Positions 2,631-64,000 of a stretch of DNA of 64,000 bases are shown in pieces. The number at the start of each line of letters is the position of its first letter. Within the stretch, counting starts at the first letter, position 1. A program made the translations under genes and the position numbers. Below the pieces are notes generated by a model, which searched no databases, was not told the origin of the DNA, and worked only from the letters and a program-made list of their open reading frames with translations. The stretch is taken from NCBI GenBank assembly GCA_963815455.1, contig CAWFGO010000001.1:1408001-1472000 (forward strand), written 5' to 3'. This DNA is from an uncultured Verrucomicrobiae bacterium. GTDB taxonomy: Bacteria > Verrucomicrobiota > Verrucomicrobiia > Chthoniobacterales > UBA10450.

Positions 2631-2789
2631 AATGACGAATAACGAATGACCCGCCCTCGCCAGGCTTCGGCGTGGCAGGCGAATGACGAAGAAACAACGA
2701 AGCACGAATTCATTTAAGAGTAGCTGCCAGTTTCGTTATTCGATTATTTGGATTTGTTTTGGCATTCGACATTCGGATTTCGTCGTTGC
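2631..2789. repeat. Degenerate ~7-nt tandem repeats (AATGACG-like) in inverted arrangement, interrupted by a 30-nt hairpin element at 2651-2680
   Basis: AATGACGAATAACGAATGAC[30 nt]GAATGACGAA ... TTCGTTATTCGATTATTTGGATTTG...ATTCGACATTCGGATTTCGTCGTT. Confidence 0.6.
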
Positions 2790-14085: not shown

Positions 14086-14235
14086 ATGAAGGTTCTCATC
14101 ATAGGTTCGGGCGGCCGCGAACATCCGCCACCGCGAGGCTACGGCGGGACAGGCGCGCTGGCTTTGAAATTGAAGGATCGGCAAGGGGCGATCGAATTTT
14201 TTGCCGGACAATGTGCTCTTGCCTGGCACTCCTAA
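14086..14235 (+). pseudogene. purD: Duplicated purD 5' fragment carrying a 30-nt insertion
   Basis: MKVLIIGSGGREH[PPPRGYGGTG]ALALKLK...*; parallels the real purD start at 14974. Confidence 0.8.
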
Positions 14236-14247
14236 AGCTTGCAGAAT

Positions 14248-14973: not shown

Positions 14974-16249
14974 GTGAAGATTCTTGTAATCGGAAGCGGT
15001 GGCCGCGAGCATGCGCTGGCTTGGAAATTGAAACAATCGGCACGCGTCGATCGGAATTTTTTGCGCGCCCGGCAATGCGGGAACGGCGTTGATCGGCGAC
15101 AACGTTGAAATCAAGGTTAGCGACCTGCCTGCGCTGGTTCGGTTTGCGAAAGAGAACAATGTCGACCTGACGGTGGTCGGGCCGGACGATCCGCTGGCGG
15201 CTGGGATTGTCGATCTTTTCACTGCTGAGAAACTGCGCGTGTTCGGGCCTACCAAATCGGCTGCGCGGCTCGAGTCGTCGAAGATTTTCGCCAAGGAGCT
15301 GATGCGTGCGCAAAACATTCCGACTGCGCAGGCGGGAACGTTTTCAAATAGCGACGACGCGCTGCGATATTGCGAGCGACTTCAGTTTCCGGTGGTGATC
15401 AAGGCGGACGGCCTCGCACTCGGCAAGGGTGTGATCATTGCGTCCGACGCCGCGGCGGCAGGATCGACAATCGATGAGATGATGAATCAAGGACGGTTTG
15501 GCGAAGCGGGCCGGAATATTGTGATCGAGGAATTTTTGCGCGGTTCGGAGTGTTCATTGCACGCGTTGGTCGATGGTGGGAATTATCTGATGCTGGAAAC
15601 GGCTCGCGATCACAAACGCGCTTTTGATGGCGACAAGGGCCCGAACACCGGCGGTATGGGCGCGTTTAGTCCGGCTAATAATTGGAGCGCCGAACTTCAA
15701 AAGCAGTTCGATCAGAAAATTATGCGCCCGCTGCTCGATGGGTTGCGCGAACAGGGAATCGCATTTCGCGGGCTGCTTTTTCCGGGGCTCATGATCACCG
15801 ACACCGGCGCGCGCGTGCTTGAATTCAATTGCCGGTTTGGCGATCCGGAGACGCAGGCCATTTTGCCGAGAATGAAATCGGATTTGCTGCCGCTGCTCGA
15901 AGCGACGATCGACAAGAAGATCGACAAGTGCGCAATCGAATGGGACCCGCGCCCGTCGGTCACGGTCGTGCTCGCTTCGGGTGGTTACCCGGACAAATAC
16001 GAAACGGGCAAACCGATCTCGGGCCTGGATGAAGCGGCAAAGCTTGATGACGTCCAAATCTTTCACGCCGGAACGCGGCGCGCGAATGGCGGCATTGTGA
16101 CTGCCGGCGGGCGAGTGCTTGCGGTCACGGCGTTAGGATCGACAATCGACGCGGCTCGGACTCGGGCATACGAAGCGGCTTCACAAATTCATTTCGAGGG
16201 TTGTCGTTTCCGGCGCGATATTGCTGCAACCACGAATGTACACGAATAG
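14974..16249 (+). CDS. purD: Phosphoribosylamine--glycine ligase (1-nt frameshift near 15055)
   Basis: MKILVIGSGGREHALAWKL then (shift) FCAPGNAG; VIKADGLALGKGV, GPNTGGMGA, EFNCRFGDPETQ, GGRVL. Confidence 0.95.
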
Positions 16250-23219: not shown

Positions 23220-23462
23220 CTACCAGAGGCGCTTTTTCGCGAATGCGTGGCCTGACCCAGATTTGAGATAACGCTCAAAGGCTTCTGCCTTAGCTTGGTC
23301 GGCGAACGCAATATATGTCGTCAGTTTCCAAGGCCTGAACTTTGAAGAGTGGAAGGATTTTCCCGCGTTGTGCTCTCGGAGCCGTTTTTTGAGATCAGTG
23401 GTCATTCCCACATAACGTTCGCCTTCCTTAATGAGACTCTCAATTAGGTAAACGTAATACAT
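23220..23462 (-). CDS. Small GIY-YIG nuclease
   Basis: MYYVYLIES...YVGMTTDLKKRLREHNAG...RPWKL...AEAFERYLKSGSG; AGGAGG RBS upstream. Confidence 0.92.
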   Translation of the reverse strand: MYYVYLIESLIKEGERYVGMTTDLKKRLREHNAGKSFHSSKFRPWKLTTYIAFADQAKAEAFERYLKSGSGHAFAKKRLW

Positions 23463-23539
23463 CGTAGTCCCTCCTTCGCTGAAGCTTCGGAGGGTAATAA
23501 TATACTTGACCGACCGCTTCATTGGCATATTCTGCTCGC

Positions 23540-24490
23540 ATGAACGCACCCGAAACTTTGCTCGAAGCAGTCTCGTATTTCAGCAATCCAGAGAACGCTT
23601 TCCAGTTCTTTGTCGGCATTCGCTGGCCGCGTGGAGTGCGTTGTCCGCGCTGCGGTTCTGATAAGGTGACGTTCCTCGCAAACGCGAAGGTGTGGAAATG
23701 CAAAACTCCGCACCCAAAGCAAAAGTTTTCGGCAAAGGTCGGAACGATCTTTGAAGATTCGCCGATTGGCCTGGAGAAATGGCTTCCCGCAATGTGGCTC
23801 GCCGCTAACTGCAAGAACGGAATCAGTTCTTACGAGTTGCACCGCGCGATTGGCGTAACGCAAAAGACCGCTTGGTTCATGTTGCAGCGGATTCGGCTGG
23901 CAATGCAGGACGACTCTATCGAGAAAATGAAAGGCCGTGTTGAAGCCGATGAAACTTTCATCGGCGGACTGGCTCGGAACATTCACAAGAATAAGCGCAA
24001 AGTTCGTGGAACAGGTGGAATCGGTAAGGAACTGCCGTGATTGGACTCTTGGAACGCAATTCGCCGAATCAATCCTCTCGGGCGTTCGTTGCAAGGTTAT
24101 TGAGAACGTGCGCCGTCATCATGTCGATTCGCTGAGGTGCGCGAGAATGTCGAAAAGGGGACGGATAGTTTTCACGGATGCTCTGGATTCCTACAACCAG
24201 CTTTCGGGTGAATACGTCCACAACGTAATCAATCACGCTGAGTGCTATGCCAAAGGACACGTCCACACTAACGGGCTTGAAAACTTTTGGTCGCTCCTGA
24301 AACGCGCGCTGAAAGGAACCTATGTAAACGTTGAGCCTTTTCATTTGTTCGGGTATCTCGATGAACAAGCGTTTCGGTTTAACGAGCGCAAAGACGACGA
24401 CCAAGGGCGATTTGTTAAGGCGCTCGGCGGCGTTGTGTGGAAAAACTTTGAAATATGCCAAGCTCATCGCGGCAGAGGGTGGTGATGGCA
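23540..24490 (+). pseudogene. IS1595-family DDE transposase (frameshifted near 24025-24140 and 24440)
   Basis: RWPRGVRCPRCGS Zn ribbon, GISSYELHRAIGVTQKTAWFMLQRIR, VEADETFIGG, VFTD, VHTNGLENFWSLLKRALKGTY, YLDEQAFRFNER. Confidence 0.9.
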
Positions 24491-24639
24491 TTCAATTTCC
24501 GAGACGTGGCAAACGGCATAGCAGCATTTCATGATCTATGCGCAGCGCGACTAGCAATGATAACTCCGATAAAGATGCCGAAAAACAATCCGACCGCGCC
24601 GAAGACAGCGCAAAGAAAACGACTAGCGGCCGAAGTAAT

Positions 24640-25446
24640 ATGAGCGGCTTCATATCGTTTCTGTTCAGCGCGATCGTGTTCGTCATTACATTTGGGTTCG
24701 TTCTCGGATACATGTTCAAAGGTACTTACCAAGGTTACGTCGCTAGCATGTACTGGGGATTCGCAGCATATGTCGCCGCTGGCGTCGCTATCTTTTCGGG
24801 GTTTCATTATTTCGTCCTTGCGCCGTCCAAGGCAAATACGCCGCGATTGTCCTTCTCCGTTGCACAGGAACTTGCGATTACGAGTCAAAAATATGACAGT
24901 CCATCGTTCTGGTTTGGATTCGAGAACGGAACCCAAATGTATTTGTCGCCTGTTAGTGATGTCATGTACGTCCGATTGACTAACGGACTGGAATCTAAGC
25001 CACTTCTCATTGATTCCTATTTCCTTGAGGTTCGCGTTTCTGGCAAGCCGTGGAAGTACGCTACCCGTTTTCGGCAGCGCGATATTGAGCGAGGGAAAAT
25101 ATTCTCGACTTTTCTTCAAAACGGTCCCGCTAACTCTGTGGAAGTGACGGAAACGGTTCCACAATTCGAGCAAGTTATTAGAGAGAAAAACATTGGGGCT
25201 GGCGAAACTGTCAGAGGATTGATTTTTGTCGAACGCCCAGCGGGTTACGACGCCCACCCCGACGCCCGCCAGTGGCGACTTACGATTCGGGACGTGAATG
25301 GCGCAGAGGGGAATGCAGTAATAACACGATCTACTATGCCGCGCGGGGACGACTCTATTACTGAGCTTTATTTCAAGCCTGGCAAACGAACCGATATTAC
25401 TGGAATGACCTTCATTCTTTACAGCAAAACAGGTCGTTATCGTTAG
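24640..25446 (+). CDS. IS passenger: membrane-anchored hypothetical protein (2 N-terminal TM helices, beta-rich domain)
   Basis: ORF inside the TIRs, visibly more AT-rich than the flanks; alternative start 24538. Confidence 0.7.
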   Translation: MSGFISFLFSAIVFVITFGFVLGYMFKGTYQGYVASMYWGFAAYVAAGVAIFSGFHYFVLAPSKANTPRLSFSVAQELAITSQKYDSPSFWFGFENGTQMYLSPVSDVMYVRLTNGLESKPLLIDSYFLEVRVSGKPWKYATRFRQRDIERGKIFSTFLQNGPANSVEVTETVPQFEQVIREKNIGAGETVRGLIFVERPAGYDAHPDARQWRLTIRDVNGAEGNAVITRSTMPRGDDSITELYFKPGKRTDITGMTFILYSKTGRYR

Positions 25447-25470
25447 AGACGAACCGCATAAACAAGTGAC

Positions 25471-25641
25471 ATGAAGAACACTGAAACACGCGAGGAAACG
25501 CTTGCGCGATTGGCTGAGGATTCCAGCGAAGGAAAGACATCGGCCAAACGATTCGAGGCCCTGGTTAGGCGGGTAGCGAAAACGCCAACGCCAGCAGTAA
25601 GAGCCAAGGAATCGGACACATCGGAAGCAGCGAGCGAATAG
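25471..25641 (+). CDS. Small IS-associated hypothetical protein (56 aa)
   Basis: Manual translation MKNTETREETLARLAEDSSEGKTSAKRFEALVRRVAKTPTPAVRAKESDTSEAASE, just inside the right TIR. Confidence 0.5.
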   Translation: MKNTETREETLARLAEDSSEGKTSAKRFEALVRRVAKTPTPAVRAKESDTSEAASE

Positions 25642-25817
25642 ACCTTTCGCCCTGTCACGGCGGCAGCGGCACAATAGGCCAACCGCACGGTCGGTCAAGT
25701 ATATTATTACCCTTCGGAGGGCGTCCTGCTTCCCGCAATCGTGCATCGCTTTCCTGCCGAGCGCACTGTGGTTCGAAGCCGGCGCCAGTTCTGCGAAGCG
25801 CGTAGCGCGAAGCAGGA

Positions 25818-25904
25818 CGGAAGGGGTGGGATTCGAACCCACGGTGGGTTACCCCACGCTCGATTTCGAGTCGAGTGCCTTAAACCGGACTCAGCCACCC
25901 TTCC
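25818..25904 (-). tRNA. tRNA-Ser(CGA)
   Basis: GGAAGGGTGGCTGAGTCCGGTTTAAGGCA-CTCGA CT CGA AA TCGAG-long variable arm-GTGGGTTCGAATCCCAC-CCCTTCCG; CCA not encoded. Confidence 0.95.
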
Positions 25905-26094
25905 AAATTTGGCAAAGAAGAAAGCGCCCAACGATCCGAGCCGGACGGGCGGTTAACGTCCAACATCCAAGGCCCAATGCAAACGCCATTTGCCCATGCG
26001 ACGGCAGGATGCTCATCCGTTTCATCCGCGTAATCCGCGGTCTGCCTGAGCCCCAAAAAATGTTACAATTTTTGTCTTGCCGCGTTTGCCCTTT

Positions 26095-37934: not shown

Positions 37935-38337
37935 ATGTTAAGAAATATCAATAAACGTCGCGGGGGCTTCACCCTCGTGGAAATTATGATCGTGGTCGCG
38001 ATCATCGCGTTGCTGGCAGCCATCGCCGTGCCCGGATTCCTCCGTGCCCGGAAGCGCTCGCAAGCTACGCGCATCCTCAACGATCTGCGCATGATCGACG
38101 CGGCCGTCGACCAATACGCCATCGAAACGAACCGGACCTCCGGAGCGGCGGTGCCCTTCTCCGACTGGAAGGTCTACCTGAAAAAGGGCTCAGTCGCTCT
38201 ACAACACGGGCAATAGCATTCTGGGATCGGCCTACGGTACGCAAACCGTGGACCAAATCCCGCAGGTGCCATCGGCGGACTTGGCCACATTGTCCGACGT
38301 TGCCGACACCGGTTTCTGGTCGCCCTACGGGCCGTAA
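37935..38337 (+). CDS. Type IV pilin 1 (1-nt frameshift near 38195)
   Basis: G^FTLVEIMIVVAIIALLAAIAVP; after the shift LYNTGNSILGSAYGTQTVD...TLSDVADTGFWSPYGP*, colinear with pilin 2. Confidence 0.88.
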
Positions 38338-38470: not shown

Positions 38471-38875
38471 ATGTTAAGAAAATTATCAGCAAGACGAGCC
38501 GGCTTCACGCTGGTGGAAATCATGATCGTGGTCGCGATCATCGCGTTGCTGGCAGCCATCGCCGTGCCCGGATTTCTCCGGGCCCGCAAGCGTTCGCAAG
38601 CCACCAAGATCCTGAACGATCTGCGTATGATCGATGCCGCGGTCGATCAATATGCAATCGAAACCGGCCGCACCAGCGGCGCCACCGTGGAGGTCGCCGA
38701 TTGGACCAACTACGTTAAGAAGGACTCGATTCTTTACCTAACTGGCCAGAATCTATTCGGCGAAGATTATGGAGCGCAGACGGTCGATTCGTTGCCAGGT
38801 GTGACCCAGAATGCCTGGGACACGTTGTCCGACGTCGCCGGAAGCGAGTTCTTCTCGCCTTACGGACACCCCTAA
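38471..38875 (+). CDS. Type IV pilin 2
   Basis: G^FTLVEIMIVVAIIALLAAIAVP prepilin cleavage/methylation motif with E5; AGGGG RBS. Confidence 0.93.
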   Translation: MLRKLSARRAGFTLVEIMIVVAIIALLAAIAVPGFLRARKRSQATKILNDLRMIDAAVDQYAIETGRTSGATVEVADWTNYVKKDSILYLTGQNLFGEDYGAQTVDSLPGVTQNAWDTLSDVAGSEFFSPYGHP

Positions 38876-49372: not shown

Positions 49373-50467
49373 ATGAAACTCCAAAGACCTCGCGCTTTTA
49401 CTCGACGGGAAGCTGTCCCGCCTCCGCCGGGCTACGGCGCGGCGAGCACCTTCCCCTACAGGCCAAGAATCATAGGGCTCGCGCTTCTGTTTGCACTGAT
49501 CGGTTCAGCCTGGGCGCAAAACCCGCTGATGATTAACGGCGCGGGTGCGACGTTCCCGTATCCGATCTACTCGAAGTGGTTCGATGAGTATACCAAGGTC
49601 GATCCCTCCGTCCGGTTTAATTATCAATCGATCGGTTCCGGCGGCGGGCAGAAGCAGATTATGGCGCAGACAGTCGATTTCGGCGCATCGGATGGGCCGA
49701 TGAGCGATGACAATCTGTCCAAGGCTCCCGGCAAAATTCTGCACATTCCCACAGTCGCAGGCGCGGTGGTGATGACTTACAACGTCGAGGACAATCCGGC
49801 GCTAAAACTCGATGGCGAGACGATTGCCGGCATTTTTCTCGGCAAGATAAAAAAGTGGAACGACCCGAAGATCGCGGCCACGAATCCGGGAGTAAAATTA
49901 CCGGACAAAGAAATCATTGTGGTCCATCGCTCCGACGGCAGCGGCACGACATTTATTTTCACCGATTACCTGAGCAAGGTGAGTGCGGAATGGAAAGGGA
50001 AGGCCGGGAACAACACGTCGGTGAATTGGCCGACGGGGATTGGCGGCAAAGGGAACGAAGGCGTAGCCGGCCAGGTGAAACAAACGCCGGGCGCGCTCGG
50101 TTACGTGGAATTGATTTATGCGATCCAGAACAAAATGTCCTACGCGGATGTGAAAAACGCTGCGGGCGAATTCGTTAAGCCAACATTGGAATCGGTGACG
50201 GCCGCTCTGGCCACGGCTGATGTCCCGGATGATTTCCGGTTTTCGATGACGAACGCGCCGGGCAAGGACGCTTACCCGATCGCGGGCGCGACCTGGCTGC
50301 TGGTTTACCAGCAGCAGAAGGACGCTGCCAAAGGCAAGAAGGTGGTCGAGTTTTTGAAATGGGCGCTGACCAAGGGCGAAGGAATGTCGAAGCAGCTCGA
50401 TTACGCGCCATTGCCGGCGGCGCTGCAAGAGAGGGTTCTTAAGCGGGTCGGAGAGATCAAGTATTAG
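49373..50467 (+). CDS. pstS: Phosphate ABC transporter substrate-binding protein
   Basis: GAGATFPYP, YQSIGSGGG, DFGASD, HRSDGSGTT, GGKGNEGV, GYVE, YPI. Confidence 0.96.
   Translation: MKLQRPRAFTRREAVPPPPGYGAASTFPYRPRIIGLALLFALIGSAWAQNPLMINGAGATFPYPIYSKWFDEYTKVDPSVRFNYQSIGSGGGQKQIMAQTVDFGASDGPMSDDNLSKAPGKILHIPTVAGAVVMTYNVEDNPALKLDGETIAGIFLGKIKKWNDPKIAATNPGVKLPDKEIIVVHRSDGSGTTFIFTDYLSKVSAEWKGKAGNNTSVNWPTGIGGKGNEGVAGQVKQTPGALGYVELIYAIQNKMSYADVKNAAGEFVKPTLESVTAALATADVPDDFRFSMTNAPGKDAYPIAGATWLLVYQQQKDAAKGKKVVEFLKWALTKGEGMSKQLDYAPLPAALQERVLKRVGEIKY
49407..49459 (-). repeat. GTAG-REP with nested 30-nt element in pstS leader
   Basis: GGGAAGCTGTC[CCGCCTCCGCCGGGCTACGGCGCGGCGAGC]ACCTTCCCCTAC; host matches reverse complement of the 9586 REP. 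Confidence 0.8.
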
Positions 50468-61172: not shown

Positions 61173-64000
61173 ATGCCGCGGAACGATCACATCAAGAAAA
61201 TCCTGCTTATCGGCTCCGGTCCAATCGTGATTGGGCAGGGCTGCGAGTTCGATTATTCCGGTGTCCAGGCCTGCAAGGCGCTGCGGGAGGAGGGGTACCT
61301 GGTCGTGTTGGTCAACTCCAACCCGGCCACGATCATGACCGATCCGGAGTTTGCCGATCGGTACTTATATAGAGCCAATCACGGCCGAGGTCATCGAAGC
61401 GATCATCGAGCGCGAAAAGCCGGATGCGCTTCTGCCGACCATGGGCGGACAAACCGCGCTCAATGCGGCCATGGAGTTGAATCGCAGCGGCGCGCTCGCC
61501 CGGCACGGGGTGAAATTGATCGGCGCCAATGCCCAGGCCATCGCCAAGGGCGAGGATCGACAACTGTTCAAGGAAGCGATGTTGCGAATCGGCCTCGACG
61601 TGCCGCGGTCCGGGATTGCGCGGTCGATTGTCGATGCTAATCGCGTGGCCGATGAAATCGGAAAGTTCCCGCTTATTATTCGCCCGGCATTTACCCTGGG
61701 CGGGAGCGGCGGCGGCATTGCCTACAATCGCGACGAGCTCCAGGAAATCGCCGATCGCGGCCTGTCGCTTTCCCCGGTTACCGAAGTTCTCATCGAAGAA
61801 TCACTCGTGGGCTGGAAAGAGTTCGAGATGGAAGTGATGCGCGACCGGATGGACAACTGCGTAGTCGTCTGTTCCATCGAAAATTTCGACCCGATGGGCG
61901 TGCATACCGGCGATTCGATTACGGTCGCGCCCGTACAAACACTCACCGACAAGGAATACCAAATGATGCGCGACGCGGCCTTCGCCGTGATCCGCGAGAT
62001 CGGGGTCGAGACCGGTGGCTCGAATATTCAATTCGCCGTGCATCCGGACACCGGCCGGATGGTCGTGATCGAAATGAACCCACGCGTCTCGCGTTCGAGC
62101 GCGCTGGCTTCGAAAGCCACCGGATTCCCAATCGCCAAAATCGCCGCGAAGCTCGCGGTTGGCTACACGCTGGACGAAATCAAGAACGACATTACCCGCG
62201 AAACGCCAGCCTGTTTCGAGCCGACCATCGATTACTGCGTGGTCAAGGTTCCGCGGTTCACCTTCGAAAAATTTCCGCAAGCGGACCCGACCCTGACGAC
62301 GCAGATGAAAAGCGTCGGTGAAGCGATGGCGATTGGCCGAACATTCAAGGAAGCGCTGCAGAAAGCGTTGCGCAGCCTCGAGATCAAACGGTTTGGGCTC
62401 TGCGACGACGGCGCCGACAAACATGTCGATCCCGAAACATTGCGCCTGAAACTTTCGGTTCCGAATGCCGAGCGCATCTTCTATATGGCCCAGGCATTCC
62501 AGGACGGCATGTCGATCGATGAAGTCTTCGACCTGACGAAGATCGACCGGTGGTTTCTTCGAAACGTGGCGGAGATTGTCAAGGAAGCGCGCTCTCTCCT
62601 TCGTAGCACAGGCATCTTGCCTGTGGGGCCGGCGGGCGTCTCGCCTGCCGAACTGGAAGCCCCCATAGGCGTTTCCGCCCCTCAATTCCATGCGGTGGAT
62701 CCGCGCGACGCGGTCGTCAGGCCCCGCCGAAACTTGCCGCATTGGGAGCAAGCGGGCGCCACGTATTTCGTAACCTTTCGTTTGGCCGACGCCGTCCCAC
62801 AGGAAGTTCTTCGCCAATGGAAGGAGGAATTGCAGACGTGGATGAAATTTCATCCTGAGCCCTGGGATGCTGCAACCAAATACGAATATCAAAAGCGATT
62901 TCGGGACGATCGGGAGCAATGGCTCGATCAGGGCCGCGGTGAATGCCTGCTCAAGAAGAGTGACATTTCGGGCATTGTGATTGATTCACTGGGACATTTC
63001 GATGGTCAGCGTTATTTGCTGGACGCGTTCGTGGTGATGCCGAATCACGTGCATGTCCTCGTCCAGCCGGTGGCGGGTCAGTCCCTTTCCGATATCCTGC
63101 ATTCTTGGAAATCGTTTTCAGCCAAGGCGATTAATCGCCTCCTCGAAAGGACGGGGCCGGTTTGGCAGGAGGAGAGCCATGACCGAATCGTGCGCGATTT
63201 AGAGCATTTGATCCGCTGTCGCGATTACATCACGCGCAATCCGGAGATGGCGCGGCTGCGAGAAGGCGAATTCGTGTTGTATGCGACCGGAAGACTGGAG
63301 ACGAGTTTAGACTCGACAGGCGGGTCGCCTGCCGGCCCCACAGGCAAGATGCCTGTGCTACAACCGCTCCTCCGCGCAAAAAAGCTGGGCTTTTCGGATC
63401 GGCAACTGGCGGTAGCAGCGAACCGGACCGAACACGAAATCCGCGCCGGCCGGAAATCGGCGGGCATTCTCCCAACCTATCGGCTCGTCGATACCTGCGC
63501 GGCGGAGTTTGAGGCTTACACACCTTACTATTACTCGACCTACGGCGACGAGAACGAGCGGCGCGAGAGCGGCAAACGCAAGGTCATGATTCTCGGCGGC
63601 GGACCGAATCGGATCGGCCAGGGAATCGAGTTCGATTACTGCTGCGTCCACGCAGCATTCGCCCTGCGCGAACTCGGATTCGAAACGATCATGGTTAACT
63701 CGAATCCGGAAACGGTTTCGACCGATTACGACACGAGCGACAAGCTTTATTTCGAACCGCTCACGCTCGAAGACGTGCTCAACATTTACGATCAGGAAAA
63801 GCCGGAAGGCGTGGTCGTGCAGTTCGGCGGACAAACGCCGCTCAATCTCGCCAACGGTTTGAAAGAAGCAGGCGTGCCGATCCTGGGAACGCAGCCGGAG
63901 AGCATCGAGACCGCGGAAGATCGACAATTGTTCGCCGCCATGCTCGACAAACTCGGGCTGCGGCAAACGCCGAGCGGCTCGGCGGTCAGCGCCGATGAAG
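61173..64000 (+). CDS. carB: Carbamoyl-phosphate synthase large subunit with in-frame RAYT insert (1-nt frameshift near 61362; truncated at window end)
   Basis: [98 protein letters not shown]. Confidence 0.96.
62603..63361 (+). mobile_element. REP-flanked RAYT (Y1/HUH transposase) module inserted in frame in carB
   Basis: [19 protein letters not shown]...[11 protein letters not shown]...WKSFSA...[12 protein letters not shown]...YITRNP between 49-bp inverted GTAG-REPs (62603-62651; 63313-63361). Confidence 0.93.

Follow-up and report, generated by a model that had tools for sequence, protein, structure and literature searches.

Base-exact hairpin insertions of about 30 nt in Verrucomicrobiota and a tRNA-linked GIY-YIG nuclease as their candidate mobiliser

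The 64 000 nt stretch of an uncultured Verrucomicrobiae genome analysed here (the window) contains three related 30-mers that interrupt unrelated sequences, which raises the question of whether a unit this small can be mobile and, if so, what moves it. A sequence-only reading had described the 30-mers as copies of an extremely small, non-autonomous unit with precise insertion. All three were confirmed, and the pattern proposed for them matches the window exactly three times when up to three mismatches are allowed, against 0.01 matches expected from 100 shuffles. However, the ends first assigned have to be shifted to the left by one base, which places the copies at 2650–2679, 14124–14153 and 49417–49446, all on the forward strand.

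Copy 1 (2650–2679), which has a C:G end pair and belongs to what is here named family A, is inserted 5′ of a C in a block of heptamer tandem repeats with an inverted counterpart (2630–2790, ends approximate). Without the insert, the heptad junction is found at 38 other places in the genome, and the whole block is missing from a relative, G011. Copy 2 (14124–14153; T:A end pair) splits the purD motif GGREH within its His codon. While this motif is indeed interrupted, the host is not an intact gene but a pseudogene fragment, a decayed duplicate of the 5′ part of purD (14086–14238, forward strand) in which 50 codons are followed by a stop. The full purD (14974–16249, start approximate, forward strand) is 890 nt downstream of the relic and has an empty site, as does purD in relatives; a single frameshift close to the start of this gene may be an assembly error. 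Copy 3 (49417–49446; C:G end pair) is nested in a GTAG-type repeat, the empty junction of which is found 18 times elsewhere in the genome. The 45 nt repeat and the 30-mer together make up a 75 nt in-frame insert (49385–49459, forward strand) in the signal peptide of a PstS-like phosphate-binding protein (gene at 49373–50467, forward strand), where both nested inserts are translated and add 25 residues. The 75 nt insert is missing in G001, a genome of the same genus, and is skipped by one contig of sequencing run X3. Deletion of 30 nt therefore restores a recognisable host in each case, as had been claimed. At the orthologous empty sites of copies 1 and 3 the entire host repeat is missing, so these sites alone do not define the ends, and the contigs of four sequencing runs include no joint that skips just the 30-mer. 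Among the matches listed for the site of copy 3 there is no RNA record. Elsewhere in the window, two 227 nt direct repeats (37965–38191 and 38501–38727) that are 81% alike lie 536 nt apart.

The element can be written N-CCGCC-TTC-GC-loop-GC-TAC-GGCG-bulge-G-N′-CARG, where N, the first base and the one missed at the left end, pairs with N′, the fifth-last base. N and N′ form a Watson–Crick pair in 109/117 copies in this genome (C:G in 77, T:A in 25, G:C in six and A:T in one), in 112/118 copies in relatives and in 305/327 deduplicated sites pooled with those from other phyla. For the 327-site set, sites with identical flanks were removed, rows from this genome were limited to a single mismatch, and sites with less than 25 nt of flank were dropped. 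No search pattern constrained N, N′ or the base that follows the element; most other columns were set by the strict pattern, so that their constancy outside this genome is by construction. Both ends are constant to the base. In the proposed fold, a 6 bp stem with one bulge is followed by a 3 × 3 internal loop, a 2 bp stem and a variable loop, with the 4 nt CARG as a tail; on the reverse strand, each side of the internal loop is G-N-A. In an alignment of 80 of the 284 distinct copies, 94.9% of cells are paired and six of the nine pairs have two-sided changes. The hairpin reported earlier is supported by this covariation and not by folding energy, because single copies fold no better than shuffles (z −1.5 to +0.4). 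The tail bases do not covary with the flanks. None of the 327 copies carries a GTAG or CGTC tag, and the foot on the reverse strand is CYYG.

When the 3.62 Mb genome was searched with the two arms of the element, 98 copies with up to two mismatches were found, compared with none or one in two 6-mer shuffles. With the last base unscored the census reached 117, a few entries of which represent relics of leaders or decayed copies and not dispersed inserts. The copies are 28–33 nt long. A unit length of 30 nt holds for the window copies and for 48/117 overall but is not fixed, as 60/117 are 31 or 32 nt (30 of each). This assembly seems to contain indel errors, one being the purD frameshift, and forms of 31–33 nt are equally common in other assemblies. 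Approximately 55 of the 117 sites fall inside a repeat of the CGTC or GTAG type, a short tandem repeat or another copy of the element, and near the rRNA operon the element is nested in itself several levels deep. Multi-level nested hairpin copies lie at L278:10980–11200 (C5, approximately 160.5 kb), a few kb upstream of a 16S rRNA gene, and a block that is nearly the same follows 2.7 kb later. Another dispersed copy is found at the 3′ end of tRNA-His, and nine of the 117 sites are at ATCGA^C, an over-represented word. Among the commonest words of the genome are two 7-mers that resemble a HIP-type motif, ATCGACA and GATCGAC, of which the latter occurs at 2.75 times its second-order expectation.

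A strict form of the pattern was present in 15/24 genomes of the same taxonomic family and in 1/16 of other families, and in 23 of 200 further genomes drawn from the phylum. The genomes compared included three unpublished ones, namely G015, with eight copies of the element, one leader (L415) and one row among the carriers, and G003 and G008, which are non-carrier rows in the table of 41 genomes; none in the 200-genome set is flagged as unpublished. Among the matches listed for GTDB contigs, most were from Verrucomicrobiota and the others, going by record titles, were from Acidobacteriota, Lentisphaerae, Kiritimatiellae, Planctomycetota, Desulfobacterota, Patescibacteria, Nitrospirota and Proteobacteria. 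Viral contigs contributed 11 element loci but no convincing relative of the nuclease encoded in the window.

Comparison of filled and empty orthologous sites revealed precise insertion. In the region encoding the N-terminus of a class II aminoacyl-tRNA synthetase, presumably glycyl-tRNA synthetase, the genome studied here (G000) contains a family A copy, G011 contains a different 30-mer that starts with T (family B) at the same G^C bond, and the site is empty in three of the four relatives found. Judged from these alignments, this bond is the best proof of the ends of the element. A site in a racemase gene is empty in 4/4 relatives, and one in a glycosyltransferase gene is cleanly empty in 2/5. 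From the 118 sites in relatives, 14 could be mapped to G000 on both flanks; approximately seven of these are empty there, three of them clean to exactly 30 nt, and two are filled in both genomes, which are of different genera. No close strain with an empty site lacking only the 30 nt was found. Family B is a second 30 nt insert, with two adjacent hairpins and covarying ends, that is present in 26 copies here (including G000 C1:970190 and C2:215612; L488–L511) and in 15/24 genomes of the taxonomic family. Most of its insertions are at G^C or A^C, many of them in frame, and in one gene it occupies the same bond as family A.

The claim that there is no multi-base target duplication was borne out, as empty sites with a single junction base outnumber those with a doubled base by 1306 to 29. 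Where the first base of the element differs from the following base, the host consensus favoured the downstream base at 15 sites and the upstream base at 11, and the sites with high counts are mostly on the following-base side. Insertion is 5′ of one base, with no loss and no multi-base duplication, and the net insert is the element itself. The combination of IS terminal inverted repeats and a multi-base target duplication that would mark a MITE was not found. The base after the insertion is predicted by N′. A G at N′ is followed by C in 159/183 copies and a C by G in 27/36; when N′ is A, T follows in 39/103 copies, compared with 9/224 otherwise, although these copies sit before C as often (44/103). 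As the post-insertion base tends to complement N′, N usually resembles a 1 bp duplication. No other flank position, +2 and +3 included, pairs with the element, so the coupling is limited to one target base, and there is no replication-strand bias (65 to 52 copies by GC skew). We conclude that the unit almost certainly is, or was, mobile. The empty orthologous sites, the fixed ends and the co-occurrence with one nuclease group described below all support the original view of a very small, non-autonomous unit with precise insertion.

The length of 30 nt had also been taken to preserve the reading frame. According to a dicodon model, 20/111 copies of 30 nt are in a coding context (10/48 in this genome and 10/63 in relatives), compared with 0/124 copies of other lengths. 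Frame preservation therefore applies to copies in genes but not to the family; because other lengths occur solely outside coding context, it reflects selection on the copies that have survived inside genes. Copies within open frames are mostly in the sense orientation (25/30), which is explained in part by a stop codon on the opposite strand.

The window also contains a gene for a stand-alone GIY-YIG nuclease of 80 aa (23220–23462, reverse strand), a member of the sister group of the candidate mobiliser discussed below. Immediately upstream, on the same strand, is a leader hairpin (23469–23494) with the architecture of the element, i.e. stem, G-N-A, 2 bp stem, loop, G-N-A, stem. The leader is split by an IS1595-family element (23493–25711) flanked by an 8 bp target duplication, and its 5′ part (25720–25814, reverse strand) is directly behind tRNA-Ser(CGA) (25815–25905, reverse strand; C1 1433815–1433905; identified with ARAGORN), the host of the cassette. 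The transposase of the IS1595-family element is in two frames. Reading of the flanks identified two GIY-YIG genes in this genome with an element-like hairpin architecture upstream, this one and another behind tmRNA. The latter, in contig C5, is the closest cassette in the genome to the candidate mobiliser.

The candidate is a close group of 16 loci, defined by an E-value cut seen after the search and with one broken gene added by hand, that the tree does not resolve as one clade. The leaders at 10/16 of these loci include an inverted, near-perfect copy of family A, and the outer family A stem with a long loop, inside which the inverted copy lies, is likewise present at 10/16. The inner copy and outer stem were absent from 12 distant GIY-YIG loci and were found at two and one of 82 sister-group loci and in 15 and one of 1500 random windows, respectively. 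In an independent set, 23/36 leaders had the family A pattern. The close loci are directly behind a tRNA or tmRNA in 13/16 cases. The outer stem starts at the CCA of the tRNA and is followed by another CCA, a geometry that matches that of a dispersed insert, and some cassettes have a short form at the tRNA CCA bond. Cassettes also form leader–gene–leader tandem arrays, of 364 and 402 bp. At L444 and L460, three near-identical nuclease cassettes are in tandem behind one tRNA and a fourth leader closes the array. Rfam searches of four cassette loci returned nothing beyond the tRNA or tmRNA. The catalytic-type residues Y17, R27, H31 and E63 are invariant in 14/14 nucleases. The structural model has a pLDDT of 94 and the nearest solved folds are HIGLE, BH0048 and Slx1 (E 0.001–0.01); the candidate is thus predicted to fold like Slx1 or HIGLE.

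The sister-group leader hairpin is itself dispersed, with up to 35 copies in genomes that have sister leaders. Genomes with sister-type leaders (G150, G221 and G129) contain 18–35 sister hairpins and no strict family A copy, and those with A-type leaders (G128 and G234) contain 5–9 family A copies and no sister hairpin. Dispersed sister hairpins keep the N:N′ pair and mostly also the CARG tail. The gene is present in 18 of 19 genomes with at least three sister hairpins, though the pattern also matches leaders and inflates low counts, and one genome with 10 sister hairpins has no match to the gene. Other small GIY-YIG genes in this genome (G000 C3:553128, C3:491045, C1:174056 and C1:532651) are behind tRNA-Pro or tRNA-Met with a duplicated 3′ half of the tRNA, or inside 23S rRNA, and each subgroup has its own flanking structure. 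A further GIY-YIG subgroup (L420–L424, L432, L434 and L435) has a different short hairpin upstream and is often near fragments that, by eye, resemble integron integrases. Several leaders and tRNA relics (G000 C5:219990, C1:591404 and C1:174056; L418) are interrupted by a short perfect palindrome around AAGCTT, which is probably another micro-element.

Co-occurrence with a nuclease or transposase family had been suggested as a check. In 41 genomes, whole families did not discriminate carriers of the element, as Y1 transposases were present in 36, four-helix-bundle proteins in 34 and GIY-YIG proteins in 39. Counts of GIY-YIG genes gave the strongest correlation with the element (rho 0.56). With the window protein as query, matches at E ≤1e-18 were found in 12/17 carriers and 0/24 non-carriers, and at E ≤1e-8 in 15/17 and 4/24. 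In a profile search of the 200 phylum genomes, with the prediction recorded beforehand, matches at E ≤1e-12 were found in 21/23 carriers and 55/177 others, and at E ≤1e-24 in 19/23 and 39/177, so that one GIY-YIG group does track the element. The first look at co-occurrence in this set scored at most 28 candidates per genome. These genomes are kin rather than independent, and p-values overstate the association. Carriers without a good nuclease match are G007 (99% complete, eight copies), G022, G185 and G077, and 39/58 genomes with a strong nuclease match have no strict copy of the element. Outside the phylum, 4/5 carriers have a nuclease match and 2/5 an A-like leader. Ssn-type and four-helix-bundle genes do not track the element, and an Ssn-like protein was found in 2/23 carriers with a single-sequence query. 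No recurring mobiliser emerged from a Pfam scan of 150 open frames near clustered and viral copies, with frames of over 450 aa and two short ones set aside; the genes identified were of ordinary kinds. Left and right halves of the element were also sought separately, which gave nested and decayed copies with no gene-bearing element between them. Overall, the element is very probably tied to the nuclease cassette.

On balance, we lean towards a micro-hairpin that derives from the cassette leader and is cut out and delivered in trans by the GIY-YIG nuclease, acting on single-stranded DNA. We infer mobilisation by this nuclease because its leader holds the same hairpin, because element and gene co-occur, and because there is a precedent in SsnA, a related single-domain GIY-YIG protein that cuts single-stranded DNA beside its own hairpin repeat (PMC11893778). 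The nuclease would recognise the strand with the two G-N-A strands of the internal loop and cut flush at both ends of the element. N′ would pair with N inside the element before it pairs with the base at the target, like the guide bases of IS200/IS605 and REP elements, in which guide-like pairing sets the target or cut site (PMC8266576). The dispersed element would be the end hairpin of the cassette acting alone, with a pairing of three bases in the cassette (TGG with the tRNA CCA) relaxed to one, leaving it free to land in repeat loops, heptamer arrays, itself and protein surface loops. The joints would presumably be sealed by host ligase or repair. The nuclease accounts for cutting and not for joining, and we know of no GIY-YIG nuclease that joins DNA. 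No excision, circle or transposition was observed, and many copies in identical repeat hosts may have spread together with the host.

A bolder version, which we put forward only tentatively, would amount to a new class of transposition in which the 80-residue Slx1-like nuclease is the only enzyme that the element encodes. The nuclease would excise a 30 nt single-stranded hairpin that closes into a dumbbell, one guide base pair would pick the target, and insertion would be scarless. The tRNA-linked cassette would be the autonomous form, each nuclease subgroup would have its own micro-hairpin, and loops of 10 residues would have been added to housekeeping proteins across many phyla. The dumbbell intermediate is without direct support, because the circular folds predicted for 10 sampled copies were weak and inconsistent.

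The hairpin could instead have left the cassette leader as RNA. Processing of the tRNA trailer would yield a short hairpin RNA, from which a host polymerase or reverse transcriptase would make DNA at nicks introduced by this or another nuclease. The outer stem starts exactly at the tRNA CCA, and the trailer RNA would carry the hairpin. The sense orientation of copies in open frames and the even replication-strand counts also fit, and RNA intermediates have reportedly been proposed for the small dispersed repeats (SDRs) of cyanobacteria. However, copying at nicks would be expected to blur ends that are exact to the base on both sides, the sense bias is partly due to the stop codon on the other strand, no reverse transcriptase turned up beside copies in the frames scanned with Pfam, and SsnA is inactive on RNA (PMC11893778). 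We consider this route unlikely.

It appears more doubtful still that the element is a REP-like singlet moved by an HUH/Y1 transposase of the RAYT or IS200 type, able to cut and join single-stranded DNA, and that the nuclease leader merely shares or has acquired the hairpin. Three hallmarks of IS200/IS605 and REP elements (PMC8266576) are present, as there is no target duplication, the imperfect hairpin has 4 nt at its foot as a tail, and one base pairs with the cut site. This genome has 16 Y1 genes, and Y1 genes are present in 20/23 carriers in the phylum set, including both that lack the nuclease. However, they are also present in 115/177 other genomes of that set and are common regardless (36/41 and 135/200 genomes), and their counts correlate less well with the element (rho 0.37). 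No Y1 match was found in the family A carriers G159, G210 and G224 or in G150 and G129, which are rich in sister hairpins. The element has no GTAG tag, and none of 12 Y1 loci inspected is flanked by the hairpin. These 12 of the 16 loci, read by eye with the four fused Y1 domains set aside, have other repeats, and one includes the element solely as an insert in its GTAG repeat. One RAYT-like Y1 domain is in the window (61173–64000; L066:1–3156), inside the frame of the carbamoyl-phosphate synthase large subunit and between inverted GTAG repeats (62603–62651 and 63313–63361), with no stop. Three more Y1 domains are in frames of 900–1500 aa.

Passive spread, in which old insertions hitch-hike in REPs and heptamer repeats with the help of recombination and the link to the nuclease comes from common ancestry and an overall load of selfish DNA, would fit the approximately 55/117 sites in other repeats, the recurrence of identical host-plus-insert composites, the two sites filled in different genera and the clustering of carriers in one family (15/24 versus 1/16), but is improbable given unique insertions in unrelated housekeeping genes with empty orthologues, nesting several levels deep, a hairpin within the leader itself that general load does not explain, and Ssn-type and four-helix-bundle genes that fail to track the element.

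Excision and delivery of the hairpin by the GIY-YIG nuclease remains our preferred reading. The family resembles several known systems. The SDRs of Nostocaceae, reportedly described by Elhai et al. in 2008, are said to be 21–27 nt long and confined to a subgroup of cyanobacteria; to our knowledge they encode nothing and have no known mobiliser. Both groups are very short, precisely inserting hairpins, found in heptamer tandem repeats and in themselves, with structures backed by compensatory changes. Both also use an over-represented oligomer as target (HIP1 for SDR5 and ATCGA^C at 9/117 sites here). The features typical of SDRs, namely a length below approximately 40 nt, dispersal, precise insertion evidenced by empty sites, and nesting in itself and in heptamers, are all found in this family. 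However, it differs in its length of 28–33 nt, its presence in many phyla, far outside cyanobacteria among the records listed, its target-pairing rule and its candidate enzyme. SDRs are treated in PMC4390886 and mentioned in PMC3116915 and PMC2884548.

The Ssn nucleases (SsnA, cd10448) and their NTS/SRM repeats have a repeat–gene–repeat layout, and their authors propose mobility (PMC11893778). Here too, a single-domain GIY-YIG protein of approximately 80–100 aa is tied to a dispersed hairpin repeat. However, 0/327 copies match the SRM pattern, which finds 20 sites in this genome. The Ssn-like genes of the genome are flanked by CGTC-type repeats and group apart from the candidate (89/99), which is behind tRNA CCA ends; the CGTC-flanked proteins, taken as Ssn-like, share 34% identity with the candidate and form a separate group in the tree. 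Insertion of SRM into genes is rare, and we know of no target rule described for it. The family shares with REPs and REPINs an imperfect hairpin of 20–40 nt, many copies, a 4 nt foot, non-autonomy, guide-like pairing and some copies in frame (PMC3733652, PMC6006769 and PMC8266576). It was correctly held to be distinct from the GTAG-REPs, as the GTAG/CGTC tag is missing in 327/327 copies and the element is a single exact-ended unit rather than a doublet, has REPs as its targets and was not found flanking a Y1 gene. Rickettsia palindromic elements are likewise palindromic inserts translated in frame in housekeeping proteins but are longer or CGTC-tagged and restricted to a genus (PMC3733652). 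Literature searches turned up no account of this family or of a connection between it and a tRNA-linked GIY-YIG gene, though the supplementary tables of repeats and atypical hairpins in PMC3733652 and PMC6006769 could list it.

How mobile elements of 20–30 nt move has been an open question since SDRs were described, and the family described here brings to it base-exact ends, a target rule and a candidate enzyme of 80 residues. Its copies explain odd, proline-rich stretches of 10 residues inserted into proteins from uncultured bacteria, and they are precise markers of lineage history. Should the nuclease prove to cut its own hairpin in single-stranded DNA, the Ssn concept would gain a second group, linked to tRNAs. 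Should it drive insertion as well, the system would be among the smallest known for transposition.
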